In this document: positions 1 to 34,800 of the stretch, piece after piece
How positions within the stretch are numbered: the first letter of the stretch is position 1
How the letters are laid out: the number at the start of each line of letters is the position of its first letter
From: Candidatus Hadarchaeales archaeon
GTDB lineage: Archaea > Hadarchaeota > Hadarchaeia > Hadarchaeales > Hadarchaeaceae
DNA length: 49,713 nucleotides
Reading direction: 5' to 3'
NCBI GenBank assembly: GCA_038851075.1
Contig: JAWCLG010000006.1
Coordinates: 1-49,713 of the forward strand
Position numbers and translations under genes: made by a program
Notes under the pieces: model-generated
What the model saw: only the letters and a program-made list of their open reading frames with translations
What the model was told of the DNA's origin: nothing
Database searches by the model: none

Positions 1-121
1 CCGTATCTCCGTACGGGTTGCGTTTAAAGTCCCATGCGGATGTGAGACCGGTGCTCCACGTGGTGTCGGTGTAGGTCCTGACGTTCTTCATGTTCTCTGT
101 GGTCTTTCCGGTGCCTCCCGC
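1..121. repeat. Identical block 2, inverted copy of 33059-33179
   Basis: Reverse complement matches 121/121 nt up to the window edge. Confidence 0.95.
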
Positions 122-1996
122 TGGACTAGTAGATTGACCAGATGTTTCGGTATCCCAAAAACAGTTGGTAACCGTTCCTGAACCATGCCCAATCAGTCCT
201 CCGACGTTCGTGTTCCCCTGCACAAGCCCCTTGGAGTAAGATTTTGATATTGTCGGATTAGTTCCAATACTCCCGATAAGACCACCAACAATGTTATCGC
301 CGCTCACATTGCCAGTTGCATATGAGTTCAGAGTGCTGCCACCGTATCCCTGTACTCCGTGGAGCCCGCCAACATAGTTTTCACCGACCACATTTCCGGT
401 TGCATAACATCGATACACATTTACTCCATTATAACAAGCACCAACCAGCCCTCCCGTATAGCTGGAGCTGCCTGTTACGTCCCCTGTTGAGTATGAGTTT
501 TCTATTGTCGTATAGTTGGTAGCAGACCCAATCAGTCCCCCCACATAGTTACCGCTTCCGGTCACGTCACCTGTTGAGTGTGAGTTTTTTATTATTGTGC
601 TGTATGAAGCATATCCTACCAGTCCCCCCACATAGTTACCGCTTCCGGTCACGTCACCTGTTGAGTACGAGTTTTCCATTATCGCTGATGTGTAAGAAAA
701 CCCCACCAGCCCACCCACATTGAAAACGCCGGTAACGCTTCCGATTGAATATGAGTTCTCTACCCTCGCGTATTCATTTAAATATCCGACCAGCCCACCC
801 ACATTATTTTTGCCGTTAACGTCACCCGTTGCGTAGGATCTGGAAACTGTTCCGTAAATTATTCCTGCAAGTCCGCCCATGTAGTTTTCACCGTTCACAG
901 TCGCTCCAGCGTTACAGTTTTCAACGGTTCCGTACTTATTATATCCAACAAGCCCTCCAACGTAGTTGCTCCCGCTTGTGGTCCCGACCGCGTATGAGTT
1001 CTCAATGGTTCCATTTTCATTTAACCCGACGAGGCCTCCGATGTTGTCTCCGGAGCCGCTCACGTTTCCGGAGGCATAACAGTTACGGATAATGCTATTT
1101 CTCTGAAAGTCGGATCCATTCCAACCGACCAACCCGCCCAGCAACTTCGGGCCGCTAACGTTTCCAGTAGCATAACAGTTCTCAATGGTGCCGTACCTGA
1201 ATCCTCCATTTACTCCGACCAACCCTCCGGCACAGCCGTAGTAGTCGCTGGATGTACAAACGACATTTCCGGCCGCGAAACTGTTTGTTATAATTCCCGT
1301 TCCGCTGGCTTCATAGGCGTTCCACCCGACCAGCCCGCCTGCGGTAGGACCGCTAACGTACGCCACGGAATGACAGTTGTCGATGTCTCCATCATTCCAC
1401 CCTACTAGCCCTCCCGCATCGTACTCTCCCAGCGCTGTCACAATGCCTGTCGTGTAACAATTGAAGATAGACCCAGCGTTGTGTCCGACAAGGCCTCCAA
1501 CTTCATCTTTTCCGGTCACATTCTCGTTCTCAATCCCAACGTTCTCCACAATTCCGTCTGACGACACTGATCCAAACAGGCCGACGTAATCTATGCCGGG
1601 TCTGTTTATGTAGAGGTTTTCTATCACATAACCAGCCCCATCAAATATCCCCGAAAAAGGACCAACAGGCTCAAAACCCTGTCCGCCGTTCCACGTTTTG
1701 GTTACGGATGCATCGATGTCGTTTTTAAGCCTGTAGCATGCTGAGAGGTTCTCCTTCATTGCCTGCAGGCCCTCCACGTTCTCTATCATGTACGGGTCAT
1801 CAGGAGTCCCGCTCCCGCTGTATGGAAAGGGATGAGCGGAAACAGCAGGGGTAGTTGATGAGAACAGGAACAGCAACACCATCACGATAAAAGTGAATGT
1901 AAAAGTGACGCTCAGAACTCTAACCCTCGGGTTTCGTACAGGAGTAAGATAAAGAGAAGCGATCATAACTGGCGCCCCTCTAACCGTACCGCTCAT
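1..1996 (-). CDS. Secreted GLUG-repeat surface protein, paralog of 31838-35656 (3' end runs off window)
   Basis: Manual translation from ATG 1996: MSGTVRGAPVMIASLYLTPVRNPRVRVLSVTFTFTFIVMVLLFLFSSTTPAVSAHPFPYSGSGTPDDPY...; many VGGLVG repeats; still in frame at 121. Absent from the ORF track, consistent with no stop inside the window. Confidence 0.88.
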   Translation of the reverse strand, partial: MSGTVRGAPVMIASLYLTPVRNPRVRVLSVTFTFTFIVMVLLFLFSSTTPAVSAHPFPYSGSGTPDDPYMIENVEGLQAMKENLSACYRLKNDIDASVTKTWNGGQGFEPVGPFSGIFDGAGYVIENLYINRPGIDYVGLFGSVSSDGIVENVGIENENVTGKDEVGGLVGHNAGSIFNCYTTGIVTALGEYDAGGLVGWNDGDIDNCHSVAYVSGPTAGGLVGWNAYEASGTGIITNSFAAGNVVCTSSDYYGCAGGLVGVNGGFRYGTIENCYATGNVSGPKLLGGLVGWNGSDFQRNSIIRNCYASGNVSGSGDNIGGLVGLNENGTIENSYAVGTTSGSNYVGGLVGYNKYGTVENCNAGATVNGENYMGGLAGIIYGTVSRSYATGDVNGKNNVGGLVGYLNEYARVENSYSIGSVTGVFNVGGLVGFSYTSAIMENSYSTGDVTGSGNYVGGLVGYASYSTIIKNSHSTGDVTGSGNYVGGLIGSATNYTTIENSYSTGDVTGSSSYTGGLVGACYNGVNVYRCYATGNVVGENYVGGLHGVQGYGGSTLNSYATGNVSGDNIVGGLIGSIGTNPTISKSYSKGLVQGNTNVGGLIGHGSGTVTNCFWDTETSGQSTSPAGGTGKTTENMKNVRTYTDTTWSTGLTSAWDFKRNPYGDT
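533..666. repeat. 47-bp exact direct repeat, 87-bp period, inside GLUG cassette
   Basis: CAGTCCCCCCACATAGTTACCGCTTCCGGTCACGTCACCTGTTGAGT at 533-579 and 620-666. Confidence 0.92.
1641..1843. repeat. Identical block 1, inverted copy of 31988-32190
   Basis: Reverse complement matches 202/203 nt (one synonymous GGT/GGG change). Confidence 0.95.
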
Positions 1997-2060
1997 GGTC
2001 CTCTCATCCAATCTCTGTCCTCCTTGTTTTTTATCTTATCCATCGCAGAAAACGAAAATA

Positions 2061-2582
2061 TCAGAATTTTTCAATGTGCACGACCTCGTCAAACGAGATT
2101 CTGCCAGGCATCCTCGGTCTCTCAGCGGGTTTTCCGAGTAGAATCATCGCCACGGGCCTGACGCCATCCGGTGCGCATACGGCCCGCGCTGCCTTCCCCT
2201 CATCGAAAGCGCCCACCCAGCATGTTCCGTATCCCATAGAGTACGCCATGAGGAGCATGTTCTGAACAGCGGCGGCGGTGTCCTGAATGCAGTAAAGCTC
2301 AGCGCCCCGCCTGCCGTACCTGGCAGAGGTCCTCGGGATGTTCGCACAGACCACTATCACGACCGGTGCCTCGACGATAAAGCGCTGTCCGTGCGCCGCC
2401 TCGGAGAGCGCCTGTTTTCTACTCGCATCGCGCACCACCACGAACTCCCAGGGCTGGCAGTTTCCGGCGCTGGGCGCATGAATTCCCGCTTCGAGTATTG
2501 CCCTGAGATCAGACTCCGGAACATCATCCGGCTTGTACTCCCTGACGCTTCTCCTGCCCCTTATTGCCTGTGATAGGTCCAT
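2061..2582 (-). CDS. Nitroreductase family protein
   Basis: RRSVREY, APSAGNCQPWEF, GYGTCWVG; start trimmed to MDLSQAI. Confidence 0.9.
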   Translation of the reverse strand: MDLSQAIRGRRSVREYKPDDVPESDLRAILEAGIHAPSAGNCQPWEFVVVRDASRKQALSEAAHGQRFIVEAPVVIVVCANIPRTSARYGRRGAELYCIQDTAAAVQNMLLMAYSMGYGTCWVGAFDEGKAARAVCAPDGVRPVAMILLGKPAERPRMPGRISFDEVVHIEKF

Positions 2583-2631
2583 TCCGTCCCCGTTAGTTTT
2601 TAAGCGTCCGTCTCTAAATGATTTCGGTAAG

Positions 2632-2892
2632 ATGCCAGACCTTTCCAGTCTCAACTGGATAGTGCAGAAGGCCGCTGAACTCCTCGAGGACAAGGTCAGG
2701 GACGCCCCGCTGACGTACAGGGATGTCGAGATGGCGTTCGAGATGTATGCCCTCCCGAGGCTGAAGAACCTGGAGGAACAGGCACAGCTGCCCACAAGCT
2801 GGGAGCAGGCGAGGGACTTTGTGACCATGAAACTGCAGGAACGGGCAAAGCAGCTGAACTCAGAGATCTGGAAAAAACCGGAGCTTGTCTGA
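2632..2892 (+). CDS. Small hypothetical protein
   Basis: MPDLSSLNWIVQKAAELLEDK..., helical, divergent from nitroreductase, fills the gap. Confidence 0.65.
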   Translation: MPDLSSLNWIVQKAAELLEDKVRDAPLTYRDVEMAFEMYALPRLKNLEEQAQLPTSWEQARDFVTMKLQERAKQLNSEIWKKPELV

Positions 2893-2946
2893 CCTCTGCG
2901 GTAAGGTTAAAGCCAACCATGAGAAACTTTGCGGGTGCGTGGAAGC

Positions 2947-4770
2947 ATGAAGTTCTACATCACGACACCGATATACTACATAAATGCCGTCCCGCACATC
3001 GGGCACGCGTACACAACCGTTATCGCGGACGCGGTTGCGAGGTGGCACAGGCTCAGAGGGGATGACGTCTTCTTCCTCACGGGTCTGGACGAGAACTCCG
3101 AGAAGACAGTGGAGGCGGCGAGGGAGCAGGCCTACGCTGACGTCAGGGCTTACGCCGACTTCATGGCTGAGACATGGAAGAAGGCGTGGAGGGCGCTTGA
3201 GATAAGCAACGACGACTTCATCAGGACGACCGAGGAGAGGCACAGGAGTAACGTTCACGAGCTGCTCGAGAGAGTCAGAAAGGCTGGAGACATATACAAG
3301 GGTGTTTACGAGGGGCTCTACTGCGATGGCTGTGAGGCCTACCTGACCGAGAGCGACCTTGTCGATGGAAAATGCCCGCTGCACGGGAAGGCGCCAAGGG
3401 CAGTCAACGAGGAGAACTACTTCTTCAGGCTTTCAAAATACGCGGACAGGATACTCGAGCACATCGAGAAAAATCCTGATTTCATAATGCCCGAGGGCCG
3501 CAGGAACGAGGTGATGAGCTTCCTGAAATCCGGACTGAAAGACGTGAGCATCAGCAGGAGGGGCGCGAAGTGGGGGATAGATTTCCCAGGAGATCCTTCA
3601 CACAGGGTCTGGGTCTGGTTCGACGCGCTCTGCAACTATCTGGCGCCGAAAGGACGATGGCCTGCAGACGTCCACATCATCGCCAAGGACATACTCAGGT
3701 TCCACTGCGTGATATGGCCGGGCATGCTCCTGTCAGCGGGATTAGATCTCCCGAGGAGAATATTCGCCCACGGATTCATCACAATCGAAGGAAAGAAGAT
3801 CAGCAAGTCGCTGGGCAACGTTGTCGATCCGGTCCACCTGGCGGAGGAGTATTCACCGGACGTGGTAAGATACTACCTCCTGAGGGAAATATCGTTCGGA
3901 CAGGACGGTGACTTCTCGGAAGAGGGGCTGAGGAAGAGGCTGAACGACGAGCTGGCCGATGTGCTCGGCAACTTCGTGCACAGGGTGCTGACTTTTATAA
4001 GGGACAGGTACGGGGGTGCCCTGCCTGATGGAAAGCCCGACATGAAAATCGGCGGTGCTGTTGCGGAGAAGATCTCCAGGATAGACCGGCTCATGGAGGA
4101 CCTCAGGGTGTCTCAGGCGCTGGAGGAGATACTGGCGCTCGCTGGACTCGGAAACGAGTACTTACAGGCAAACCGCCCGTGGGAGGCGCTGAAATCGGAT
4201 CCGGGCAAGGCGGCCCGATGCATCATCACGTGCGCGAACCTTGCAAAGGCCCTGTGCGTCTTACTGCACCCGTTCATGCCATCGGCCTCAGAAGACTTTG
4301 CCGGACAGCTGGGGATAAGGATAGAAAACCTCGACCAGGCGAAGGCATTCGACCTCGGGCCGGGCCACAGGATAGGAGAGCCGAAGCCGGTGTTCACCAA
4401 GGTGCCTGAAAAGAAAAATCCGGGAGAGAGGAATAACCCGGGCCCGGACGCGGTGTCGCCAGGAGATTTTGAAAAGCTGGATATCAGGGTGTGCGAGGTG
4501 GTCGAGGCCGGCAGAATCGAGGGTTCCAAGAAGCTCCTCAGGCTGGTTCTGGACACTGGCTCAGGCAGAAGGACAGTTGTGGCCGGGATAGGGGAGAGGT
4601 ACGGGCCGGAGGATCTCGTGGGAATGAAGGTCGTGGCGGTGGTCAACATGAAGCCGGTGAAGCTCATGGGGGTGGTATCCGAGGGAATGATCCTTGCAGC
4701 GGATGACGGCAGCGAGCTGTCGGTCATCTCACCGGACAGGGACCTTCGCCCGGGCTCCAGGGTGAGATAG
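2947..4770 (+). CDS. metG: Methionine--tRNA ligase with C-terminal tRNA-binding domain
   Basis: YITTPIYY, HIGH, KISKS, Zn knuckle, C-terminal Trbp111-like SEGMILAA. Confidence 0.97.
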   Translation: MKFYITTPIYYINAVPHIGHAYTTVIADAVARWHRLRGDDVFFLTGLDENSEKTVEAAREQAYADVRAYADFMAETWKKAWRALEISNDDFIRTTEERHRSNVHELLERVRKAGDIYKGVYEGLYCDGCEAYLTESDLVDGKCPLHGKAPRAVNEENYFFRLSKYADRILEHIEKNPDFIMPEGRRNEVMSFLKSGLKDVSISRRGAKWGIDFPGDPSHRVWVWFDALCNYLAPKGRWPADVHIIAKDILRFHCVIWPGMLLSAGLDLPRRIFAHGFITIEGKKISKSLGNVVDPVHLAEEYSPDVVRYYLLREISFGQDGDFSEEGLRKRLNDELADVLGNFVHRVLTFIRDRYGGALPDGKPDMKIGGAVAEKISRIDRLMEDLRVSQALEEILALAGLGNEYLQANRPWEALKSDPGKAARCIITCANLAKALCVLLHPFMPSASEDFAGQLGIRIENLDQAKAFDLGPGHRIGEPKPVFTKVPEKKNPGERNNPGPDAVSPGDFEKLDIRVCEVVEAGRIEGSKKLLRLVLDTGSGRRTVVAGIGERYGPEDLVGMKVVAVVNMKPVKLMGVVSEGMILAADDGSELSVISPDRDLRPGSRVR

Positions 4771-5406
4771 TTGCTCAAGCTCGATCTCCATGTCCACACC
4801 TCGCACTCAGTCGACGGGATGTTCTCCGTCAGGGAAATGGTGGACGCGGCGAAGAGGAAGGGACTGAGCGGAATGGCCATAACCGATCACAATACGATCT
4901 CAGGTCTGAAGGAGGCTGCCGGGCTCTCCTCCAACAAGTTTCTGGTGATACCCGGTGTGGAGATATCAAGCGGCGGAGCACACGTTGTCGCCCTCGGGAT
5001 AAAAAAGGAAATTCCCAAGGGGATGCCGCTGAAGGATACAGTCTCCCTCATAAAGAAGCAGGGGGGCGTCGCGATAGCAGCGCATCCCTTCGTGCCTGGA
5101 AGAAACCCCGACGCTGTTAAAGAGGTCAGGTTTGACGCGATAGAGGGGCTCAACTCCAGGGCGTTTTTTCTGAGCAATCCTCTCGCCAGAAGGTACTCCA
5201 GACTGACGAACCTTCCTATGGTCGCCGGATCTGACGCCCATCACGCTGACGATGTGGGCACCGCTTACACCTGCATCGATTGCAGACCCGACATCGAAAC
5301 GGTTCTGGACGAGATAAGGGCGGGCAGAACTTCAATTGAGGGGAAAGCGCTTCCCGTGCCGACCCTTCTCTGGAGGTTCGTTCAGAGGGCTTTGAAGAAA
5401 AGATGA
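4771..5406 (+). CDS. PHP-domain phosphoesterase
   Basis: DLHVHT, AITDHN, AHP, GSDAH. Confidence 0.9.
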   Translation: MLKLDLHVHTSHSVDGMFSVREMVDAAKRKGLSGMAITDHNTISGLKEAAGLSSNKFLVIPGVEISSGGAHVVALGIKKEIPKGMPLKDTVSLIKKQGGVAIAAHPFVPGRNPDAVKEVRFDAIEGLNSRAFFLSNPLARRYSRLTNLPMVAGSDAHHADDVGTAYTCIDCRPDIETVLDEIRAGRTSIEGKALPVPTLLWRFVQRALKKR

Positions 5407-5409
5407 TCG

Positions 5410-5440
5410 GGAGGGGCGCGAGCGAAGCCCGCGCCCTTCC
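5410..5440. terminator. GC-rich hairpin between convergent genes, possible terminator
   Basis: GGAGGGGCGCG pairs with CGCGCCCTTCC; T-tract follows on the minus strand. Confidence 0.5.
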
Positions 5441-5486
5441 TACACCCCTTTGGAGGCTGGACCGAGGAGGTGGGGGTGACCGTGAA

Positions 5487-5663
5487 CTATTTCTTCTTGT
5501 AGTCGAGCAGGCCTTTGAAGCCGAGCTCCTTCATGACCCAGTCATGGATCATTTTCCTGACGACCTCGCTGCGGTTCGTGCCGTAGCCGGTCCCTATGAG
5601 GTCGTCTATAACCTTGAGGTAAAGACCGTCGACAAAAACCCGGATTTCCTCCTTTTTCTCCAA
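5487..5663 (-). CDS. Ribbon-helix-helix (CopG/CdrS-like) protein, 58 aa, not in ORF track
   Basis: TTG start after GAGGAGGGGGG; MEKKEEIRVFVDGLYLKVIDDLIGTGYGTNRSEVVRKMIHDWVMKELGFKGLLDYKKK; beta strand plus G-Y-x-x-NRSE helix. Confidence 0.85.
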   Translation of the reverse strand: MEKKEEIRVFVDGLYLKVIDDLIGTGYGTNRSEVVRKMIHDWVMKELGFKGLLDYKKK

Positions 5664-5722
5664 AATTCCCCCCTCCTCATACCCTCCAGATAAACTGCAT
5701 CCATACTACACCTAACCTGCAC

Positions 5723-5734
5723 TTTATATATAAA
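5723..5734. promoter_or_regulatory. Palindromic, possibly bidirectional TATA box
   Basis: TTTATATATAAA placed to serve the RHH gene (-) and the candidate ncRNA (+). Confidence 0.55.
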
Positions 5735-5775
5735 TGTTGTGGTGTTGTAAAAAAACCCTGCAACTCAACATTTGA

Positions 5776-5887
5776 TCAGGTCGGAGCGCCTAACCGCCAG
5801 GCTATCGTTGTTCAGTTAACAGGCGCTGCTAATAAAGCGCGTGGTACATGCTAAACAGCGGTCGTCACTTTGAAGGGGCCGACCTGA
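5776..5887 (+). ncRNA. Candidate structured pseudoknotted RNA of unknown family
   Basis: 9-bp closing stem, crossing 7-bp and 5-bp helices, internal hairpins with G-U pairs valid only on +. Confidence 0.45.
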
Positions 5888-5929
5888 AAAATTTGTTTAA
5901 CAGGCGCCCGGCCTGCCCACCATTATTGT

Positions 5930-6226
5930 TTATCTCCGGTCTGCTCTCTCATGTTTAGCGGTCTTCAGTATCTCAAATATCTCGACACCTATCTCTCCAA
6001 AGAACTTCATACCATTATCGGTTATCGAGTAAAGTTTCCTCGGTCTGCCTACCGAGAACGTCACCTCGTCTGATACCGAGACAAGATTGAGCTTCTCGAA
6101 ACGTTTGAGTATTCTGGCCACTTTCCACTTCGGCAACCCTGTGGCACTCACGATATCACTAATTGATTTCTTTGTCCTTGAGGCGATCATCTCTCGCGCT
6201 ACGAGCGTGGCTTCTTTCTTAGACAT
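5930..6226 (-). CDS. Winged helix-turn-helix regulator
   Basis: SISDIVSATGLPKWKVARIL HTH; wing GRPRKLYSITDNG. Confidence 0.85.
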   Translation of the reverse strand: MSKKEATLVAREMIASRTKKSISDIVSATGLPKWKVARILKRFEKLNLVSVSDEVTFSVGRPRKLYSITDNGMKFFGEIGVEIFEILKTAKHERADRR

Positions 6227-6398
6227 TTATATCCCTCGGAGACACTGTCCTACCATCTTTAGGTATGTTTTTTTCAATAAAAAAGTTTTTATAACATATA
6301 AAAAACTATTTTATAAAATATAAAAAACCAATAAAATGCGCGTAAAAAAGACTAATACTAACCCCTAATAACTCCAACGGAGAAGTTATGGTGATGGT

Positions 6399-7781
6399 AT
6401 GGAGTCAATCTTCAATCAGGTGCTCGCACGTATAAAGCCATCGGTCGCTGAGCGGAGAAGGGCCGAGAAAGCGGCTGCGGAAATCGTTGAGCTTGTAAAT
6501 GAAAAGTGCGAGGAACTCGAAATAAAAGCTGAAGCGAAACTTGTTGGGTCTCTGGCAAGAGGCACCTGGCTAAAAAAAGAGAAGGATATCGACGTCTTCA
6601 TATTTTTCCCGGAGCACCTCCCGAGGGAAGACATGGAAAAGCAGGGGATGGCGGTCGCAAGGGCTGTGGCTGGAAAGGCGGGGGTCGAGAGGTACGCGGA
6701 GCACCCCTACGTGAGCATGAAATACAGAGGATTCGATGTGGATCTCGTACCATGCTACGATGTTCCGGACCCTGCGAGAATAAAGAGCGCGGTCGACAGA
6801 ACTCCGCATCACCAGCGATACATCAGGGAGAGAATCACCGCCCCACTGATCGACCAGATACTCCTCACAAAGGCATTCATGCGAGGAATCGGGGTTTACG
6901 GTGCGGAGCTGAAAATCCATGGGTTTTCAGGATACCTCTGCGAACTCCTCACGCTTCACCACGGATCTTTCAGCGCTCTCGTGCGGGCCGCAATTGAGTG
7001 GAAACCTGCAACCGTAATAGATCCGGAGAAGAAATACGCAGACAGCTCCGAGCCGAGACAGATTTTCGAGGGATCCCCGCTAATAGTGATCGATCCAACG
7101 GACCGGGGCAGAAACGTCGCTGCATCGGTGTCAGCGGTGAGTTTCTCTACCTTCGTCAGAGCATGTCAGGACTTCGTATTGTCCCCAGATGAGAGGTTCT
7201 TTTTCCCGAGAGAGGTAAGGCCGATGACACACTCACAAGTAATGGCGACGGTCAGGAGGAGGGGCACCAGGCTGCTATGTCTGAAGTTCAGGGCACCAGA
7301 TCTTGTCCCGGATGTTCTCTACCCTCAGCTCAGGAAGACCGAGACCGCCATACTGAACAAGCTCAGCCAGGAAGGTTACGATGTGGTCAGGAGTGATGTG
7401 TGGGCAAACTCGTTTGTCGTCCTGCTTTTCGAACTCTCATCTCTGAAGCCCGCCGGGGTGAGAACCAGAATAGGACCTCCGCTGCCGTTTCCGGGAAACG
7501 AGTTCATCAGGGAGCACATCGGATCTAAAGAAAGACTGGCCGGTCCTTTCATAGACCGCGCCGGGAGGCTTGTGTTCGAGATGAGCAGGGAGGGGACCGC
7601 CGCGGATGAGATAAGTAAGGTCATCAGGGACAGGGGGAGCCTCGGAAAAAACATCGCGAAGGCCATGACTGAGGACTTGGAGATACTCGATGAGAGGTCA
7701 ATGAGGAAGCTGCTCAGGGACAGGGGATTCAAAAAATTCGTATCCGAGTACCTTACTAAATGCCTGCCCTGGTACAGATAG
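6399..7781 (+). CDS. cca: Class I CCA-adding enzyme
   Basis: VGSLARGTWL..DIDVF, YAEHPY, SAVDRTP, GFSGYLCEL. Confidence 0.97.
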   Translation: MESIFNQVLARIKPSVAERRRAEKAAAEIVELVNEKCEELEIKAEAKLVGSLARGTWLKKEKDIDVFIFFPEHLPREDMEKQGMAVARAVAGKAGVERYAEHPYVSMKYRGFDVDLVPCYDVPDPARIKSAVDRTPHHQRYIRERITAPLIDQILLTKAFMRGIGVYGAELKIHGFSGYLCELLTLHHGSFSALVRAAIEWKPATVIDPEKKYADSSEPRQIFEGSPLIVIDPTDRGRNVAASVSAVSFSTFVRACQDFVLSPDERFFFPREVRPMTHSQVMATVRRRGTRLLCLKFRAPDLVPDVLYPQLRKTETAILNKLSQEGYDVVRSDVWANSFVVLLFELSSLKPAGVRTRIGPPLPFPGNEFIREHIGSKERLAGPFIDRAGRLVFEMSREGTAADEISKVIRDRGSLGKNIAKAMTEDLEILDERSMRKLLRDRGFKKFVSEYLTKCLPWYR

Positions 7782-7787
7782 GGGGAC

Positions 7788-8342
7788 TCAGAGGCAGGCT
7801 TCAGCGATCGTGCTGTATATTGGTCCCTGAGGGGTGAGCCTGCTCTGCCTGAGCTTCACGGACTTTACTTCCATGGTTCCAAAATCCAGATCCGACATGG
7901 CCCTCAACTCATCTATGAGCCTCTCCCTGCCCCTCGGAGATCTCACCCTTGCAAGAGTGATGTGCGGAACGAAACCCGACTCACGCTTGAAACCAAGGCT
8001 CTCCATCCCAGCGTCGATTCCACGCTGCAGCTCGACTATCCTATCAGCTCCATCGCTGACACCAGCCCACACAACCCGAATATACCTGAGATCGGGAAAA
8101 ACTCCGACCCCCCGAACGCCCGCCTTAAATGCTCCCCCTTTCGGGACCGACCTTTCCATCGTCTCTGAGATTCGACCGATCATTTCCTCTCCAACCTCAC
8201 CCAGGAACTTTAACGTAAGGTGTACGTTCTCTGGCTCCACAAGTTTTAGGTCAGCACCTGTTGCTTTTATCCTCCCCTGAGCCTTGACGAGCTCTGCCCT
8301 TATCTCGTCAGTGATATCTATCGCGAGAAACAGGCGCATCAT
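7788..8342 (-). CDS. thpR: RNA 2',3'-cyclic phosphodiesterase (2'-5' ligase)
   Basis: Two HxT motifs (HLTLKFLG, PHITLAR). Confidence 0.95.
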   Translation of the reverse strand: MMRLFLAIDITDEIRAELVKAQGRIKATGADLKLVEPENVHLTLKFLGEVGEEMIGRISETMERSVPKGGAFKAGVRGVGVFPDLRYIRVVWAGVSDGADRIVELQRGIDAGMESLGFKRESGFVPHITLARVRSPRGRERLIDELRAMSDLDFGTMEVKSVKLRQSRLTPQGPIYSTIAEACL

Positions 8343-9022
8343 ATCACCGAGAACTCGACAACGTCAGGCAGCTCGCTGACGCTCCCCACTATCGCATCGG
8401 GCCCATATCTCTCGAGAAGTTCTCTCCTCATACCACCCGTGAGCACCGCCACGGTTTTTGCACCTATGGCTTTTCCATCCCGTATGTCATTCCAGTAGTC
8501 TCCAACTACCACGAGATCAGATGGGCTCATTCGCAGCCTCTCCGCGGCCAGCGCCATGATCTCCTTTTTTGAAAAGTGGTGTCCTCTCTCAAGCTGCCGC
8601 ACGACATCATGAGCTGTGGCAATCGCCCTGACATACCTGCCTATCCCGAGATCATCCAGCTCTCTCCTCAGCTTCTCAACGGGCACTATGCAGCTGGTCA
8701 TCACCGCAACCGGGACACCGCGTGAGTGCAGCCCTTTCATGAGCTCCGTCACACCCGGGATAAGCTTCGCCCTGGGATTCTCCCTGTACCTCCTCAGAAA
8801 CTCCATCCAGAACGAGTGAAGCTCCCTTTCTCTATCATGGGAACCGGGAGGAGATATAAGATCGTCCAGTTCGTCCGCCACATAGACCCTCCAGAACTCA
8901 TCCCTGTTCAATGTTCTCCTGCCCCTCTCTGCAAGCATTGCGTTAAACAGCTCGAAGTACCTGTCAAGGGTGTCCACGAGCGTGCAGTCAAGGTCAAACA
9001 TCACACCTCTCGCCTTTATCAA
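8339..9022 (-). CDS. HAD-superfamily hydrolase
   Basis: FDLDCTLVD, VGD..DIRDG; probable TTG start at 9022 after GGTGGTG. Confidence 0.88.
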   Translation of the reverse strand: MIKARGVMFDLDCTLVDTLDRYFELFNAMLAERGRRTLNRDEFWRVYVADELDDLISPPGSHDRERELHSFWMEFLRRYRENPRAKLIPGVTELMKGLHSRGVPVAVMTSCIVPVEKLRRELDDLGIGRYVRAIATAHDVVRQLERGHHFSKKEIMALAAERLRMSPSDLVVVGDYWNDIRDGKAIGAKTVAVLTGGMRRELLERYGPDAIVGSVSELPDVVEFSVI

Positions 9023-10920: not shown

Positions 10921-10955
10921 ATGCCGTGACCTCTCGAGAATCGCCAATGTTAATG

Positions 10956-26075: not shown

Positions 26076-26477
26076 CTACTGTTTCAGGTAGTTCTTCCAG
26101 TTCTTCATAACGAGAGCGGCACCGCCGAAAACCATCGCTATGCCGGTTACGGCAATCAGCATTCCGGTAAGAGCAGGCTGCCACTCTGCCGCCATGAGCC
26201 AGACCCCCACAACCAGGAGGAAAATGCCAAACGCAACACAGGCCAGGTTGTTTGAGGGCTTTGTCTGCCAGACTCTGCTCGCACCCGCGAATATCATCAG
26301 CACGCCTGCGACGAACAAGCAGACTCCGACCACCACGGTCCTGGAGGTGCTCATGGTGCCTATTCCGTGGTTGATCGCGAGCGCACCTCCTATGATCAGA
26401 GCAAATCCTGCTATGATCAAAACGAAGTACTTTGTCGGATCAGGAAGTCTGGGCGGCGTGTACGCAACCTCTGACAT
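26076..26477 (-). CDS. Four-TM membrane protein
   Basis: Four hydrophobic segments; abuts GH2 start. Confidence 0.7.
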   Translation of the reverse strand: MSEVAYTPPRLPDPTKYFVLIIAGFALIIGGALAINHGIGTMSTSRTVVVGVCLFVAGVLMIFAGASRVWQTKPSNNLACVAFGIFLLVVGVWLMAAEWQPALTGMLIAVTGIAMVFGGAALVMKNWKNYLKQ

Positions 26478-26539
26478 CAAATGCACCTGCCAATATCATA
26501 TCGCTGGGCTTATCAATTTTTTGCAACCTCCTGACAGGC

Positions 26540-27871
26540 TCAGCCCGCCCCCCAGAGCACCAGCTCAAGCATAAGCGTTGCGCATGCGACTAGGGTTACG
26601 GGAATCATGACCGCAAAACCGTATTTTGAAAACTTTGAAAATGAGATGTTCTGTCCCCTCTCCGAGAGTATGTCTGCCCACATTATGCCGGCCAGGGCCC
26701 CTATCAGGGTGAGGTTCGCCCCAAAGTTGCTGCCCGCTATCAGCGCTAATGACGAGCCGAGCCTCTGGGTCGCCGGGAGCTGCAGGCCCTGGATGCCTCT
26801 CACGAAGAAAATGACCATCGGATGGTGGTTCATCAGACACGCCATCAGGGATGAAAGAACACATACCCCGAACACCATTCCCAGCATGCTTCCGGAGAGA
26901 TATCCTACTACATCGGAAAACAGCGATATCCAGCCTGCGGACGCCATGCTCTCAATTATGATGAACAGTCCGAGGAGAAATGGAACAGTCTTCCAGGGGA
27001 CTTTTGACACAACATGAAAGACGCCAGAACGGTAACGAAGGGCGTCATTGACCAAAACCGCAGAGGCCATAATCAGGGGAAAAATCCAGACAGGCAACCC
27101 GGTCCAGCTGGATGGAATGCTCATGAGGACAATGACCAGTATGAGCGCAAGCAGACCGAACGAGGCGCTCTTTTTATCACGGATGGAAACTACCGAGAGC
27201 CCCGGACCGTCAATCTTCTGTGGGATATCCTGCCTGAAAATCAACCAGAGCATGCCCAGACACGCCACCGCAGAAACCAGTGATGGAAGCAGCATCCATT
27301 TCGCGTACTCAGCGAAGTTTATCCCTGCGGCGTCGGCGACCACGATGTTTGTCGGGTTCCCTATGTAGAGCGCCATCCCCGCTATGTTGACCGCAAAAAA
27401 TTGGGCGAAGAGGAAGGGCATCGGTTTCATTCCTGAATTGCGGGCTATGTAGAGGACTATGAACGTCATGGTCAGTATTATTATGTCATTGTCCGTGAAG
27501 AGAGTCAGCAGCAGCGTTAACAGGAATATATACAGAAAGAGCCTCCTTCCGGAGTTCCCGGCCAGCCTAGCCACCCTGAGCGAAATATATTCGAAGAAGC
27601 CTGAGATCTCCAGAGAGATGCATATGTAAGAGAGAGAAAGTATCAGGATCAGTACGGAATAAGGTTTGAGGCCGTCTGAACCGAATATTCCGCTGAGGAC
27701 AACGGCGGGCGGCGCGGAGAGCGTGATGATAAGAAAGATCACGCCCAGAACCGGCGCCAGCCCGTAGTCGAGGTGAATGTACTTGTATGTGAGGGGGATC
27801 CTGACAAAAGGGTGTTTGAAAACCAGAAAGATCGTCGCTATGAAAACAGCAAGGGGCAGAGGATTGTACAA
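26540..27871 (-). CDS. ArsB/NhaD-family transporter
   Basis: TDNDIIIL, IGNPTN, GSNFGANLT.IGALAG. Confidence 0.9.
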   Translation of the reverse strand: MYNPLPLAVFIATIFLVFKHPFVRIPLTYKYIHLDYGLAPVLGVIFLIITLSAPPAVVLSGIFGSDGLKPYSVLILILSLSYICISLEISGFFEYISLRVARLAGNSGRRLFLYIFLLTLLLTLFTDNDIIILTMTFIVLYIARNSGMKPMPFLFAQFFAVNIAGMALYIGNPTNIVVADAAGINFAEYAKWMLLPSLVSAVACLGMLWLIFRQDIPQKIDGPGLSVVSIRDKKSASFGLLALILVIVLMSIPSSWTGLPVWIFPLIMASAVLVNDALRYRSGVFHVVSKVPWKTVPFLLGLFIIIESMASAGWISLFSDVVGYLSGSMLGMVFGVCVLSSLMACLMNHHPMVIFFVRGIQGLQLPATQRLGSSLALIAGSNFGANLTLIGALAGIMWADILSERGQNISFSKFSKYGFAVMIPVTLVACATLMLELVLWGAG

Positions 27872-27889
27872 GCAATTTCACCCATCAAG

Positions 27890-28288
27890 TCACTTGCCCT
27901 CCTCGGCCCTCTTCACAACCACCACCGTACATGGCGCGTTCTTAAGTATGTAATCGGTAACGTTTTCGGAGATGGCGCCGAGGATTCCCTTTTTAGGTAT
28001 CGTGCCGGTGACTATAATGTCGCAGTCGTTCTTTTTCGCAAAAGATACTATGGCTCCACCCACCTCGGTCGCCTCCACAAGCTCCAGCCCGGCATCAATC
28101 CCCTCCCTATTGAGAGCATCTATAATCCACGCAAACCTCTCAGCGGCATCCTTTTTCACAAGCTCGCTCAGCACCCTCACCACGTTCAGAACGATGACTT
28201 TTGTCTCCCTGCTGCAAAGCTTTGCCGCAACATTAACAACCTCCTCGGGCGTGGCATCGGTCACGCAGAGAACCATTCTCCGGTACAA
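27890..28288 (-). CDS. Universal stress protein
   Basis: DIIVTG..G..G...V.DYILKNAPCTVVVVK; probable TTG start (MYRRM). Confidence 0.9.
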   Translation of the reverse strand: MYRRMVLCVTDATPEEVVNVAAKLCSRETKVIVLNVVRVLSELVKKDAAERFAWIIDALNREGIDAGLELVEATEVGGAIVSFAKKNDCDIIVTGTIPKKGILGAISENVTDYILKNAPCTVVVVKRAEEGK

Positions 28289-28342
28289 AACTACACCCAA
28301 TCTGGATAACGCTGGAAACATTAAAAGGTTGGGGAGGCGGAT

Positions 28343-28759
28343 TCAACCGAAGTAGCTCGGACTCTCTCCTTCCTGCTTCTGTGGAGGCCTGACGCCAGGG
28401 AGCGGTACCGGAGGGGGTACGTTGAGGCTTCTAGAGACTATCGTGGCCTCCACCAAGGAGGTGCTCGTTATGGCCTGGAGAAGGACCTGCGGCGGTGCTT
28501 TCTTATCTCTGTATCCTTCCCTGATCTTCTCAATCTCATCCTTTGGACCGGATACCAGCGCCTGCCCCTTTATGTTTATCTGAGCGATTGAAGGCGTGTA
28601 CCCTATCGTCACGACGAACGGAAGCACCAGCTTGTCGTCCTTCGGCTCCACTCCCACTATATTTATGTTCGTGGAGATGTGCACACCCTGAGGAGCGGGC
28701 TCATCCCTTCCCCAGAAGCGCTCGGCTGAGATGTAGTTGATGTCAACTCGAACCTGCAG
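28343..28759 (-). CDS. Hypothetical protein (SecB-like layout), probable CTG start
   Basis: Frame extends 25 codons upstream of the ORF-track start to CTG CAG GTT CGA after GGTGGT; C-terminal VPPPVPLP. Confidence 0.75.
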   Translation of the reverse strand: MQVRVDINYISAERFWGRDEPAPQGVHISTNINIVGVEPKDDKLVLPFVVTIGYTPSIAQINIKGQALVSGPKDEIEKIREGYRDKKAPPQVLLQAITSTSLVEATIVSRSLNVPPPVPLPGVRPPQKQEGESPSYFG

Positions 28760-28810
28760 ATTACCACCGGTTCACAATATCCCATCACGGTATTAAAACT
28801 GTCGAGTGCA

Positions 28811-30109
28811 TCAGTGATCCCTCTCCTCCATTCTCACACGAAACTCGCGCACGAGAGGTCTAGCAAGGTGTCTCCTAGCCCTGGGGGGCACCTCATACGC
28901 CCCAACGTCAAGATCCCTCCGAACCTCAGCCAACCTAGTCGCACCGGGAGGGGCTCTGATTTTGCACCTCCTGCAGGAGTACCCCTTGTTCTTTCCCTCA
29001 GATTTCATCCGCTTTCCACAGGTCGGACAGGCCGGATTGCTCTTTTTGAAAATCCGGGAAAGGCCAATGACTGCTAGCTTTTCGAGATTTATTGTCAATG
29101 GCAGCCCGGGCTTTTCCTTGACGCCACCGCACGCAAGCACTGTGTCCCCCGGTACCAGTTTTTTTACAACATTCCTAAAGTGCCTAGTTGGCTCATACGC
29201 CGCGCAGTGTATCTCTCCAGTATCGTCCTTGAGCCTGAATATCACGTGCCCTCCGGGTATGACCTCAGGAGCACTTGAGACCTTACCCTCCACGATCACG
29301 GACCAATAAGGCTTCACCTCTGAAATCTTAGCCCTTCTTAGATGCTCGTCTGTGCCCTGATTAGTCACAAATATAACGGTCCGATTGACCGGCTCTAGCG
29401 GCCTCAGAATTTTTCTAGCCCTTTCCAATATTTCGGGGCTTTCACCCCTAATACCGTACAGCACGGGACAGGGAGTATGAGGCGTTATCCTAATCTCTCC
29501 CGTGAGCGGATCAATGTTGTCGAATGTTCCAGGATATGTCAGAGAGTCCATTTTGACAACTGACTCGGGATCTACTTTCCTCGGCTTTCCCCAGTTTTCG
29601 GGTGTCCGGTACGCCATCAGCTCGTACGTCCGGTCTTTCTCAAGAGTGTTCCCTATGGCTGCAAGGGCTCCTATTATTCCCCTGCCAAGCTTGAACTTAT
29701 ACAACTCTGCACCGATCTCTTGCGCCAGGGTTTCCGCCTCGTCAATCGTCACTATTTCCTGCACGGCTCTTTTCGAGAACTCCCTGAGGCTATCCGGAAC
29801 CCTGCTCCCACAGTAAAACGCGACGCCGGGATCCGTGCCCTCTGCTTCAATCTCCGCGAGTTCTCCAACCGTTTTCAAAACGATGTCCCTGACCTCCCGA
29901 GTCTGCGATTCGGAAACATCGAGCGAAAAAGCTACGCTGCAGTTTCCTCGGGTTTTATACGGGCACCCGGGATTGAGCCTTATCAGCTTAGGAAAACCTC
30001 TCACAGAAAATCCTCTTTTTTTAAGCCTAGATAGCGCCACCGCCGCAACATACGTGGTACACATCCCTTTTCTGGAGTCGGTATCGTCTATTCCAACCTG
30101 AAAGTTCAC
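28811..30109 (-). CDS. tiaS: tRNA(Ile2)-agmatinylcytidine synthase
   Basis: GIDDTDS..GMCTTY, RLNP..PYKTRGN, TNQGTD, AAYEPT, Zn ribbon; GTG start after GGTGA. Confidence 0.96.
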   Translation of the reverse strand: MNFQVGIDDTDSRKGMCTTYVAAVALSRLKKRGFSVRGFPKLIRLNPGCPYKTRGNCSVAFSLDVSESQTREVRDIVLKTVGELAEIEAEGTDPGVAFYCGSRVPDSLREFSKRAVQEIVTIDEAETLAQEIGAELYKFKLGRGIIGALAAIGNTLEKDRTYELMAYRTPENWGKPRKVDPESVVKMDSLTYPGTFDNIDPLTGEIRITPHTPCPVLYGIRGESPEILERARKILRPLEPVNRTVIFVTNQGTDEHLRRAKISEVKPYWSVIVEGKVSSAPEVIPGGHVIFRLKDDTGEIHCAAYEPTRHFRNVVKKLVPGDTVLACGGVKEKPGLPLTINLEKLAVIGLSRIFKKSNPACPTCGKRMKSEGKNKGYSCRRCKIRAPPGATRLAEVRRDLDVGAYEVPPRARRHLARPLVREFRVRMEERDH

Positions 30110-30217
30110 GCTGATCACCTGCGATAATATGTCTCGCAGGCTTATTATTCGCATCTTGTACGCACACCACAAAATTAAAACGCCCTGCTACCCAAACGGT
30201 GGGCTGGAGGTAAGCAG

Positions 30218-31231
30218 TTGCCATGCATGATCGTAGCGGGGGGGCAGTGGGGTGACGAGGGGAAGGGAAAAATCATAGCATACCTTGCGCTGAAGGACAG
30301 GCCCGATATAATAGCAAGGTCAGGTGTTGGGCCAAATGCGGGGCACACAGTATACTGGAACGGAAAAAAGTTCGGGCTCAGACAGATACCGTGCGGTTTC
30401 GTTTACTCCGATACAAGACTTCTGATAGGCCCGGGTGTGCTGGTCAATCCCAAGGTGCTGATCGATGAAGTTGAGCTGACCGGATCCAAAAACAGAATTG
30501 GAGTTGATGGAGGCTGCGCGATCATAGAGCCCCAACACATCAACGAAGACATGTCTTCTGACTACCTCAAGGAAACAATAGGGACAACAGGCACAGGGTG
30601 CGGCCCGGCCAACGTGGCTAGGGTCAACAGAAAGGTGAGACTTGCCAGAGACGTTCCTGAACTGAAGGATTTCATAGCGGACGTGCCTCTGGAAGTTAAC
30701 CAGGCTATAGACTCGGACAAAAACGTGTTAATTGAGGGGACTCAGGGCTTCGGGCTCTCGCTCTATCACGGCACATATCCCTACGTCACCAGCAAGGACA
30801 CATCAGCGAGTTCGCTCGCCGCCGACGTTGGCGTGGGGCCGACAAAAATCGATGATGTCATGCTGGTTTTCAAGGCGTATGTGTCCCGCGTTGGTGCCGG
30901 ACCTTTCCCAACTGAAATACCTGTCGAGAAGGCCGAGGAGATGGGGATAGTGGAGTTCGGCACTGTTACGGGAAGACGGAGAAGGATAGGAACGTTTGAC
31001 TTCAACCTGGCCAAACGGGCGGTGATGATAAACGGCGCGACCCAGATTGCCATCACATGCATAGACAGGATGTTTAAAGGAGCATCAGGATCCAAATCGT
31101 GGAACAGCCTTCCATCCGACGCCAAAAAGTTCGTTGAAAACGTGGAAAACGAGCTGAAGATCCCTGTCACGATAGTATCTACGGGAGCAGACCTTGAGAA
31201 CATAATCGACATGCGGGCTGAGAAAACTTGA
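30218..31231 (+). CDS. purA: Adenylosuccinate synthetase (short archaeal form)
   Basis: GQWGDEGKGK, NAGHT, EGTQG, GTVTGRRRR. Confidence 0.97.
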   Translation: MPCMIVAGGQWGDEGKGKIIAYLALKDRPDIIARSGVGPNAGHTVYWNGKKFGLRQIPCGFVYSDTRLLIGPGVLVNPKVLIDEVELTGSKNRIGVDGGCAIIEPQHINEDMSSDYLKETIGTTGTGCGPANVARVNRKVRLARDVPELKDFIADVPLEVNQAIDSDKNVLIEGTQGFGLSLYHGTYPYVTSKDTSASSLAADVGVGPTKIDDVMLVFKAYVSRVGAGPFPTEIPVEKAEEMGIVEFGTVTGRRRRIGTFDFNLAKRAVMINGATQIAITCIDRMFKGASGSKSWNSLPSDAKKFVENVENELKIPVTIVSTGADLENIIDMRAEKT

Positions 31232-31824
31232 AGCGAATGGTAATTGCAGTTACCGGAACGCCAGGAACTGGAAAAACCGTTTTCGCTGAAAAACTATCAG
31301 GGGAGCTCAACGCCGGGCTGATACGCATAAACGATCTTATCGAAAAGAGAAAAATATATGAACTTGACAGGGATGGCACAAAAATAGTTGAGGTCAAAGC
31401 CCTGAAAAGGGAACTCAAAAAAGAGATTTCGAAATTCGAGGGGACCGTGATTGTTGAGGGGCACATGTCACACTTCATGCAGGCTGCCACCCACGTTGTG
31501 GTGCTGAGAACCAGCCCAGAGGTTCTCATAAATAGACTCGAGAGCAGGGGGTATTCCGCCAGAAAAGTGATGGAAAACGTGGAGGCTGAGGCGCTCGACA
31601 TAATCCTGTGGGAGGCTGTCAAAGAGCACGGGATAAAAAAAGTGTTTGAAATTGACACCACGGGAAAAAAGGTGGACGAATGCGTAAGAATCTTTCTCAG
31701 CGCACTTAAAAGGAAGTCCAAGCTAAAACCGGGCAGAATAAGCTGGCTGGAGAAATACCTGAACATGCAAAACAGTTCCGAACTTAAAAAATGCAAAATT
31801 AAAAATACAAAGGAGAAAAAGTAA
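31228..31824 (+). CDS. Atypical adenylate kinase (AK6/Fap7 family)
   Basis: GTPGTGKT, VEGH, RGY...KV.ENVEAE. Confidence 0.92.
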   Translation: MKRMVIAVTGTPGTGKTVFAEKLSGELNAGLIRINDLIEKRKIYELDRDGTKIVEVKALKRELKKEISKFEGTVIVEGHMSHFMQAATHVVVLRTSPEVLINRLESRGYSARKVMENVEAEALDIILWEAVKEHGIKKVFEIDTTGKKVDECVRIFLSALKRKSKLKPGRISWLEKYLNMQNSSELKKCKIKNTKEKK

Positions 31825-31837
31825 TAACACGAGATTA

Positions 31838-34800
31838 ATGAGCAGCATTGACGTCGTCCAGCCCAATATTAGTTCAATAAATTCATTTCACTTCAACCAA
31901 AAATTTCGGAGTATTATTGTTGTAGTTGCTTTTACGGTGCCCCTCGTTGTATCTCTAATCCTCCTTTTTTCTTCAACCGCCCCGGCCGTTTCCGCTCATC
32001 CCTTTCCATACAGCGGGAGCGGGACTCCTGATGACCCGTACATGATAGAGAACGTGGAGGGCCTGCAGGCAATGAAGGAGAACCTCTCAGCATGCTACAG
32101 GCTTAAAAACGACATCGATGCATCCGTAACCAAAACGTGGAACGGCGGACAGGGTTTTGAGCCTGTTGGGCCTTTTTCGGGGATATTTGACGGAGACGGA
32201 CACAAAATAGAGAATCTATACATAAACAGAAATTCAGACAATGTTGGTCTTTTTAGCGTTATTGGAGCCACTGGAGTTGTGGAGAATGTTGGGTTAGAAA
32301 ATGAGAACATAAATGGCGAATTCCGTGTTGGGGGGCTGGCTGGGGCTAATTTTGGAACGGTTTCGAACAGTTATACAACGGGTGTGGTCAGTTGCGAAGA
32401 GGGACTAGGAGGAGGATTAATTGGCTCAAACGATGGGATTGTGGATAATTGTTTTTCAACCAGCAACGTGGTGGGTTCTAATGACCGGGTTGGAGGGCTG
32501 ATTGGGGGTAATTACGGAACCGTTGAGAACTGTTACTCAACAGCAGACAATGTGAGCGGTGGCAGTTGCGTTGGAGGGCTGATTGGGGTTAATTACGGAA
32601 CCGTTGAGAACTGTTACTCAACAGCAGACAATGTGAGCGGTGGCAGTTACGTTGGAGGGCTGATTGGGTGTACATATCAAAGCGTTTTAAATTCATACAC
32701 CACTGCTAACGTTTCAGGAACCACACACGTTGGAGGGCTAGTCGGATGGAGTACTGGTAACGGCTATATACGCAGATGTTACGCGATCGGTTCTGTCAGC
32801 GGTTCTTTAAACGTGGGGGGTCTGGTGGGAAATTCGAGTTATGGGGGTGGAGTTTATGACTCCTACGCTAGAGGAGATGTAAGCGGGAGCAGCAATGTGG
32901 GCGGGCTTATTGGATTTCTTCAGTATTCCACTATGCATAGGACATACTCCACAGGAGCGGTAACCGGCACGACCAACGTGGGCGGCTTGATCGGGAGTAC
33001 TCCTCACGGACCGTACAATGCGTTCTGGGATATCAACACCTCAGGCCAGGCGACGAGCGCGGGAGGCACCGGAAAGACCACAGAGAACATGAAGAACGTC
33101 AGGACCTACACCGACACCACGTGGAGCACCGGTCTCACATCCGCATGGGACTTTAAACGCAACCCGTACGGAGATACGGGCAACGATGACGTGTGGGCGA
33201 TCGACACCGTCACGAACGACGGCTACCCGTACCTCTCCTGGCAGCCGCACGTCCTGCTGCTCTCACCCGAGAACGGGCTGACCACGAAAGACAACGTTCT
33301 GACGCTCACATGGGACAACGTGGTCGTGCCCGACAACTTTGAAGTATGGGTTGACAACAATCCTGACTTCTCCTCGCCGGTGGTCCTTGACAACACCGGG
33401 GACAACTTCTACGACCTGCCGGAACTCCCGGACAACATATACTTCTGGAGGGTGTTCGCCTACTCCGGCGGCGAGGTGGTCCTCATCTCGGACAACTGGA
33501 GCTTCATCATCGACACCCTTCCCCCTCATGTGCCGACGCTCACCCTCCCGGGAGACAACCACGGCACGGACAACCGCATGCCCAGCTTCACCTGGACATG
33601 CCAGGACAACACGTCCCGCACTGACAACGTGAGCGGGATAGAGAACTATGAGATACAGATCGCCACGGATAACGGGTTCGGATCCCCGCTTGTGCACGAG
33701 AACGTCTCATTATCCATATACACCCCCCCGGACAACCTGGACTGGGGAACCTACTACTGGAGGGTGAAGGCCCGGGATAAAGCCGGAAACGAGGGTGGCT
33801 GGTCAGAGAACAGAGCCCTGAAGATACTTGACTTCGACGTGACGACCGACCCGACATCGCTTGAGATGATGAGGGGAGGAAGCTCTGACGTGACCGTTAA
33901 CGTGGTCAACCTGCACGGTCCCGGTGAGAACGTGTACCTGACCGGGAGCTGGGTCGGGACAGCACCGTCGGGCGTCACCGCAAGCTTCAGTCCGTCAAAC
34001 GGGATAACCGACTTCAGCAGCACACTCACCTTCACCACGACATCGAGCGCCGACGAGGGCACGTTCACCTACCGGGTCACCGCGGCCAACAGCTCTGGAG
34101 AGATAGTAAGAACAGCAGACGTGAGCGTGAGCATAGCCGCCATGATATTCTCGGTGGACGCCTCCGAGAAGTCCATCACCCTGATGAGGACGGACTCTGC
34201 CACGTCCGAGATAACAGTTGACTTCGTGTGGGGCTCGCCCAAGACCGCCACTCTGAGCGGTGCATGGATCGGGACCGCGCCCACCGGAGTCACGGCCAGC
34301 TTCAGCCAGACATCGGGCACACCGACCTTCAGCTCCACCCTCACCTTCGTCACCTCGGGCAGCGCCTCCCCCGGCAGCTACACCTACAGGGTGACCGCAA
34401 AGTCTGGCATATCCAGGACGGTCAGCATATCTGTGGTCATAAACTCCAGCATGACCCTGACAGTCGCCACCGACAGGGACAACTACGTCAGGGGGCAGTA
34501 CATCAGGATATCGGGCACCGCGCTTGACCCGAAGGGCTCCCAGGCGGCGGAGGGAACGATCAGCCTGTCGCTGTCCTGCGACAACTGGAGGAAGAGCCTC
34601 ACCGCCGAGATAGGCAGCGGGACCTACTCGGTCACCCACTTCATAAACTTTGACCAGCCGGTAGGGACCTGGACCATCAGCGCGACCGCATCGGACAACA
34701 GGGGGAACACCACAGCGAATGCTGTTACAAAGACGGTGTCAGTGTCCGAGAGCGCCGTCCACAGGTTCTACACGGTGACAGTCCTGAACCCGCCGCCCGG

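Follow-up and report, generated by a model that had tools for sequence, protein, structure and literature searches.

The tufA and tufB genes of Salmonella are inverted paralogs that evolve in concert by gene conversion, and homologous recombination between paralogs in inverted orientation can also invert the segment that lies between them. Surface-protein genes of Campylobacter fetus (sap) vary in a RecA-dependent manner, with one promoter on a short invertible element and the other homologs silent, while Anaplasma msp2, Neisseria pilE-pilS and Borrelia vlsE each pair a single expression site with numerous donor copies that are truncated and silent. Recombination-driven surface variation of these kinds is well known in bacterial pathogens but is, to our knowledge, hardly documented in archaea. 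Repeat proteins with the GLUG motif (PF07581), often accompanied by Ig-like domains, are widespread in both bacteria and archaea. An archaeal example of gene conversion between paralogs is, as reported, the duplicated mtrA of methanogens (PMC4632066). The locus described here lies on a contig of a Candidatus Hadarchaeales archaeon (GenBank assembly GCA_038851075.1, contig JAWCLG010000006.1, positions 1 to 49,713; this whole stretch of 49,713 nucleotides is referred to as the window) and consists of two oppositely oriented GLUG-repeat genes, copy A at the left end of the contig and copy B some 30 kb further right. We consider it probable that these are two old paralogs whose ends have recently been homogenised by homologous recombination, which would make them a real gene pair and not a demonstrated switch.

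Copy A is a minus-strand open reading frame (ORF) that runs off the contig edge, with 670 residues visible, and copy B is a plus-strand ORF of 1272 residues (31838–35656); the coordinates of their parts are collected in Table 1. A repeat search of the window finds two inverted repeat pairs between them, one of 269 nt at 92 % identity (1601–1869 and 31962–32230) and one of 121 nt at 100 % identity (1–121 and 33059–33179). When the copies are compared base by base, the first pair contains a block of 203 nt (block 1; B 31988–32190, A 1843–1641) with one mismatch, which on the coding strand is a G at B 32170 and a T at A 1661; the second pair is block 2. Between the two blocks lie the GLUG-repeat cores, 1519 nt long in copy A and 868 nt in copy B, both of length 1 mod 3, with the reading frame kept. 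In a codon-aware alignment read in windows of 20 codons, third positions have an identity of 1.00 within the blocks, whereas in the cores it is 0.15–0.60, mostly 0.2–0.4, at an amino-acid identity of 0.3–0.7, and the N-terminal signal-peptide regions share an amino-acid identity of 0.20–0.30 in the first windows. Synonymous sites in the cores and signal-peptide regions thus appear to be saturated, as would be expected of old paralogs, and the identity of the blocks goes far beyond protein conservation, such that neither purifying selection nor chance can account for it. Because third positions are identical in the blocks and the cores are saturated, the blocks would have been copied recently between genes that are otherwise old paralogs. 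Synonymously identical tracts with sharp borders and diverged neighbouring sequence are characteristic of gene conversion, and copies A and B have them; it is this contrast in third positions (1.00 in the blocks, 0.15–0.60 in the cores) that leads us to favour gene conversion.

These comparisons agree with a preliminary description of the window, made from its letters alone, which had reported blocks of 202/203 and 121/121 identical nucleotides around in-frame divergent cores (1519 and 868 nt), had noted that the signal peptides differ, and had concluded that recent recombination was implied. It had also drawn attention to the lower G+C content of core B relative to the C-terminal part of the gene; the difference is confirmed (0.49 vs 0.605), but not as a special mark of core B, as the G+C content of core A is 0.50. 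A foreign origin of core B on grounds of low G+C content was likewise rejected, since core A is equally low, and low G+C content belongs to GLUG sequence in general. Both cores contain tandem units, which in core B are two adjacent copies of 81 nt that are 98 % identical (32489–32650), and in core A three of 87 nt at 71 % (441–701). Young tandem units of this sort suggest that gain and loss of repeat units may be continuing in the GLUG cores.

The identity of block 2 reaches up to the first base of the window, which is also the first base of the assembled contig (C6) on which both gene copies are found, and the border of the 121-nt block is therefore set by the assembly: it is an assembly break and not a biological border. 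Identity that extends to the edge of a contig usually marks a longer repeat that has been collapsed. The genome in question is a metagenome-assembled genome (MAG; G000) of 1,009,249 bases in 29 contigs, 88 % complete, and its contig breaks fall at repeats as a rule, since 10 of its 58 contig ends stop in exact copies, 89–127 nt long, of sequence elsewhere in the MAG. Ends that are copies of repeats are found on eight contigs (C3, C5, C7, C10, C13, C23, C25 and C27), and C13 opens inside its own repeat 1.3 kb away (C13:1–102 and C13:1391–1492, inverted), the same geometry as that of C6.

Copy A most likely continues past the contig edge with a near-identical copy of the C-terminal part of copy B, at least to the position corresponding to about 34.6–35.0 kb, and the inverted repeat is probably about 2–2.6 kb long, not 121 nt. 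The evidence comes from Logan k=31 contigs of four sequencing runs (X1–X4) of one study; the source runs that carry window sequence are hot-spring metagenomes. In X1, block 1 is a contig of its own, 203 nt long and spanning exactly 31988–32190, so that both of its ends are branch points. Its mean word depth is 16.3; the contig of the upstream flank stands at 7.89, the first contig of core B at 7.15 and a contig that leaves 32190 into another core at 7.43. The contig that starts at 33059 is unbroken to 35016 (1958 nt) in X1 and to 34577 (1519 nt) in X2, and a contig of X3 also crosses 33179/33180, so that three of the four runs bridge the point at which copy A stops; X4 covers only 33023–33081 at block 2. 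It is because of these bridging contigs that the longer inverted repeat is proposed. The loose end at 33059 in X2 matches the last 30 nt of core A exactly (window 122–151, minus strand), from which it follows that both cores enter the same C-terminal contig, and no branch leaves that contig at 33180. At the 3′ end of the gene, the last 147 nt (35512–35658) form a separate contig in X1 with a depth of 14.9, as against 8.11 for the downstream flank of copy B, and contigs of X2 and X3 pass 35658, two bases beyond the stop codon, into different downstream sequence. In these springs, the 3′ end of the gene also occurs in another genomic context.

The k=31 contigs break at the 203-nt block 1 and cannot show junctions across it, and the mean word depths of such contigs are a poor measure that cannot rank the parts of one gene. 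Gaps in cover (31500–31952 and core B in X3, 31802–32405 in X2, and patchy cover in X4) were given no weight. Further loose ends occur at 33065, 33068 and 33133, and their 30-mers were not found in the MAG; we have not counted them as additional cores on the same C-terminus, as they may be single contigs that share about 65–70 nt of block 2.

A number of observations weigh against a pair of homogenised paralogs with a shared C-terminus. The C-terminal contig of X1 has a depth of 11.3, which is 2.2 times that of the last core B contig (5.04) but only 1.4 times that of the flanks (7.89 and 8.11), and is not a clean doubling; the shared C-terminus considered in the preliminary description is supported by the contigs that bridge 33179/33180 in three of the four runs. 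X1 may moreover be the sample from which the MAG itself was assembled, and its support would then not be independent. Between 34370 and 35593 there are about a dozen sites at which the window departs from the contigs of all the runs, and a 2471-nt contig of X1 shares 34996–35541 at 99 %, without the 296 nt of 34700–34995, and is then unlike the window; this contig is a third version of the 3′ end in the spring concerned. On the strength of these site differences and this diverging contig, more than two versions of the gene circulate, and a mixture of strains is possible. The alternative downstream flank is absent from the MAG and for that reason gives no link to copy A. Searches of metagenome contigs, genome contigs and a protein database turned up no full-length copy A; a scan of metagenome contigs with query P0001 gave a best match of 47 % identity and a scan of genome contigs with P0002 gave no match. 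Two separate conversion tracts would also be required, between genes whose neighbouring sequence is only about 50–60 % identical.

We nevertheless favour homogenisation of two old paralogs, and the steps might be as follows. Each paralog would encode a large membrane-anchored surface protein that begins with a signal peptide and an N-terminal cap, continues through GLUG repeats and Ig-like domains and ends in a membrane span and a charged tail; the two genes would face opposite ways, some 30 kb from each other, in an archaeal genome of small size. Their best-conserved parts would have been overwritten by gene conversion, presumably RadA-dependent, in two tracts, namely the 203-nt start of the mature protein and everything from 33059 on (at least 1.5–2 kb), while the GLUG cores and the signal peptides would have escaped conversion and the cores would vary independently as 81- and 87-nt units are gained and lost. 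The assembler would have placed the long shared C-terminal repeat only once, with the result that the contig stops 121 nt into the shared part. What the data show is a mosaic with sharp borders, together with branch points and contigs that bridge the edge of copy A; that the process was gene conversion, that RadA carried it out and that copy A is full-length are what we infer.

The alternative that fits nearly as well as this conversion account is duplication with core replacement. A whole gene body may have been duplicated recently into an existing paralog, one GLUG core then being swapped for a diverged allele by a double crossover in the blocks; the incoming core would have come from another paralog or another spring strain, and the identical flanks would be remnants of the duplication and not conversion tracts. 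This history seems to us unlikely. Such a history predicts the same mosaic, and there are candidate core donors, in the form of metagenome sequences that share 65–70 nt of block 2 at ≥90 % identity and then diverge (at the loose ends 33065, 33068 and 33133). Blocks 1 and 2 are also the best-conserved parts of the family (83 % and 82.5 % against other paralogs, 81 % against a homolog from the same genus). However, the 5′ border of identity falls inside the coding region, at 31988, and the signal peptides differ, so that duplication would need an extra recombination event at that point, and neither the MAG nor the collections searched yielded a donor for core A or core B.

Slightly less credible is an artefact of assembly or strain mixture, whereby cores or flanks from different strains were combined, the contig is chimeric at the 203-nt repeat, or simplification of the assembly graph made similar segments identical; the mosaic pair would then not exist in any one genome. 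Strain variation is visible in the gene, in the site differences at 34370–35593 and the extra loose ends; block 1 contains an exact repeat of 182 nt, which exceeds common k-mer sizes, and many contigs of the MAG break at repeats. Yet the depth of block 1 in X1 (16.3) is close to the sum of its neighbours (the flank, core B and the other core), which argues that its k-mers are truly shared and not merely collapsed. The unique 5′ end of copy A is joined to the nitroreductase and MetRS genes in synteny with a genome of the same genus (G001), and a contig of X3 joins the copy A signal-peptide sequence to block 1 and continues for another 35 letters past the block, both of which speak against a chimera.

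Table 1. Parts of the two GLUG-repeat gene copies and the segment between them, in window coordinates
Feature	Position	Strand	Description
Block 2 of copy A	1..121	-	Identical to B 33059-33179; encodes AGGTGKTTENMK...NPYGDT, closes the GLUG region
Core A	122..1640	-	GLUG repeats over 1519 nt
Block 1 of copy A	1641..1843	-	Codes for the beginning of the mature N-terminal domain (HPFPYSGSGTPDDPY...GIFDG)
Copy A 5′ end	1844..2011	-	TTG start at 2011 (GGAGG 7 nt upstream) or ATG at 1996; own signal-peptide region (by eye)
Intervening segment, ~30 kb	2061..31824		Housekeeping genes: nitroreductase, MetRS, CCA-adding enzyme, TiaS, AdSS, AAA kinase, others
Copy B 5′ end	31838..31987	+	Own signal-peptide region; start 13 nt past the AAA-kinase stop
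Block 1 of copy B	31988..32190	+	Separate 203-nt contig in run X1
Core B	32191..33058	+	GLUG repeats over 868 nt
Block 2 of copy B	33059..33179	+	X1 and X2 contigs begin exactly at 33059
C-terminal part of B	33180..35656	+	Ig-like domains, hydrophobic span (YWWAVACAIAVACAAA; membrane span by eye), charged tail; assembled once

Both copies appear, from the gene order of relatives, to be lineage-specific insertions into a conserved housekeeping neighbourhood. The nitroreductase gene lies 49 nt upstream of copy A and the AAA-kinase gene (stop 31824) 13 nt upstream of copy B, each co-directional with the copy that follows it, and each copy has its own start and signal peptide. The relatives that could be named, in a search with one housekeeping protein of the window, are labelled Candidatus Hadarchaeales or Hadarchaeia. 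In G001, contig C7 is collinear with 2061–27871 of the window, from the nitroreductase gene (2061–2828) to a transporter gene (26540–27871), and 25 of 48 crude translations of window ORFs match it with their order kept. A convergent ORF ends 3 nt to the left of the nitroreductase gene there, and no GLUG gene is present at the copy A locus, P0001 and P0002 being without a match on contig C7; the right end of that contig lies inside the transporter gene, which places the copy B side outside the comparison. MetRS and AdSS genes are far apart or on different contigs in family-level relatives, and the 30-kb block is thus not conserved as a unit. In two of the four loci examined (G008 and G012), genes for AdSS, the AAA kinase and an M48 peptidase follow one another directly on the same strand; as to the other two, the contig ends in the kinase gene in G002, and G010 has no M48 gene within the remaining 943 nt. 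A GLUG gene is absent from this place in all four loci, and in the window it is copy B that fills the gap between the kinase (stop 31824) and the peptidase (start 35726). Since gene order and orientation match those of two relatives that have no surface gene at this place, the assembled arrangement of AdSS, AAA kinase, copy B and M48 peptidase is the ancestral, non-inverted isomer.

Some other features of the neighbourhood may be recorded. The 4 kb to the left of the nitroreductase gene in G001 (C7:1–4085) has no tblastx match in G000 at E 1e-8; its counterpart is probably in the 12 % of the MAG that is unassembled, and possibly beyond copy A. Elsewhere in the window, 550 nt at 43993–44542 are 96 % identical at the DNA level to G001:C46:5190–5739, where the proteins of neighbouring genes are only about 55–90 % identical; the ORF at 44187–44579 has no Pfam match, and an Rfam search of 43800–44700 gave a chance-level hit only. 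A tRNA of 114 nt is found by Rfam at 19964–20077 on the plus strand (44.6 bits), without an ARAGORN report, and is probably an intron-bearing archaeal tRNA gene.

Least probable of the readings is recurrent variation, in which a RadA crossover in block 1 or in the C-terminal repeat repeatedly inverts the 30 kb, or conversion swaps the cores, so that cells of the population would display differing combinations of promoter, signal peptide and core. In its fullest form, which we hold to be improbable, the inverted full-length pair would be a RadA-driven device, with the cap block and the stalk and anchor as handles and the 30-kb flip as a by-product; it is just as doubtful that the same device would reshuffle cores and promoter/signal-peptide units between the loci and with alleles of neighbouring strains. 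Inverted repeats, one of 203 nt and the other probably of about 2 kb or more and near-identical, do flank the 30 kb, and RadA is present in the MAG, its radA gene being on contig C5; the part of agent assigned to RadA in the preliminary description is thus open to it by presence of the gene, though the role itself is presumptive. Cores that are kept different despite homogenised flanks would, moreover, fit selection for diversity. As against this, the assembler threaded both copies of block 1 in one configuration, which is the ancestral gene order, the assembled order and orientation at copy B being those of the relatives, and no alternative junction appears in the k=31 contigs, which could show none. 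The further copies or silent cassettes that had been suggested did not materialise in the 1.0-Mb, 88 %-complete MAG, in which block 1 finds no other match better than 83 % over 48 nt and block 2 none better than 82.5 % over 63 nt. Each gene starts on its own, with its own signal peptide, behind a co-directional gene, which does not accord with a layout of one expression site and silent copies, and a crossover in the long C-terminal repeat would alter no protein. The MAG has no match to the tyrosine recombinase family PF00589 and, as had been stated, there is no recombinase in the window, among the 20 ORFs scanned against Pfam; serine recombinases were not searched.

Both copies belong to the GLUG-repeat surface proteins, matching PF07581 above the gathering score, copy A with E 1e-65 and 214 bits (cut-off 20.5) in 9 stretches and copy B with E 2.6e-19 and 68.7 bits. 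There are 16 GG[LF]xG motifs in the visible part of copy A and 9 in the first 447 residues of copy B. Past the GLUG region, copy B has Ig-like Pfam matches to Ig_Rha78A_N and Big_13 and weaker ones to MG2 and Invasin_D3, and since its C-terminus has a hydrophobic span followed by a charged tail of about 70 residues (by eye), it is predicted to be a membrane-anchored surface protein. Among solved structures in the PDB, P0002 has no sequence match at E 0.01, and an AlphaFold2 single-sequence model of residues 46–470 of copy B, all-beta with a mean pLDDT of 46.6, is unusable. Thousands of database proteins have GLUG repeats and a similar architecture at 30–49 % identity, and protein database searches returned none above 49 % identity outside this genome; the best match was 48 % among longer proteins and 49 % among those of similar length, with the window's own fragment absent from the listing.

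Relatives of copies A and B are found within the MAG on seven other contigs (C18, C10, C8, C11, C22, C25 and C9), several of them at the very ends of contigs, and are an instance of how repeats in surface genes fragment MAGs. The nearest paralog, on C18, is 57–58 % identical to the C-terminal part of copy B, and a search with that C-terminal region finds only copy B itself and the C18 paralog (58 %) above 41 %; in the MAG assembly, 33180–35656 is present once only, and blocks 1 and 2 do not recur beyond copies A and B. The C18 locus (G000:C18:2824–8402, minus strand) has two adjacent genes related to copy B, one with a 1461-aa open frame that has GLUG repeats and a C-terminal part 57 % identical to that of copy B, and the other with a 433-aa open frame resembling the last 400 residues of B.

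In the literature searched there is no paper that pairs the Hadarchaeota with a surface protein, and among the papers listed by a broader search none is on this system; comparison has therefore to be made with the systems named at the outset. The pair resembles sap in that oppositely oriented surface-protein homologs share a conserved 5′ coding block and diverge in the remainder. It differs from sap in that the segment between the homologs is 30 kb of housekeeping genes, each copy has its own co-directional upstream gene, and the 3′ part is also shared; judged by gene layout, the promoters being unmapped, there is no single promoter on an invertible segment. With msp2, pilE-pilS and vlsE it has in common the conserved-variable-conserved layout, and the flanks could guide segmental conversion, but there are two complete genes here and the MAG has no further copy of the flanks, nor any set of truncated donors with conserved flanks at its 88 % completeness. 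Site-specific invertases of the type that act in the Hin, Fim and shufflon systems have no counterpart among the PF00589 matches, of which the MAG has none, the serine recombinases being outside that search. If both orientations or swapped cores existed, this would be recombination-based surface variation in Archaea and of larger significance.

The closest known process appears, by analogy, to be the concerted evolution of paralogs by gene conversion, of which this pair would be a further case. As with tufA/tufB and mtrA, homologous recombination would maintain sequence identity along part of two paralogs of the same genome; in contrast to those genes, only the flanks are homogenised here and the large repeat core is diverged to saturation, and the products are surface proteins and not conserved enzymes, with conversion proposed from sequence and inversion hypothetical. 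If the plain reading of two old paralogs with recently homogenised ends holds, the locus shows cleanly how a family of archaeal surface proteins can evolve in concert over part of its length.

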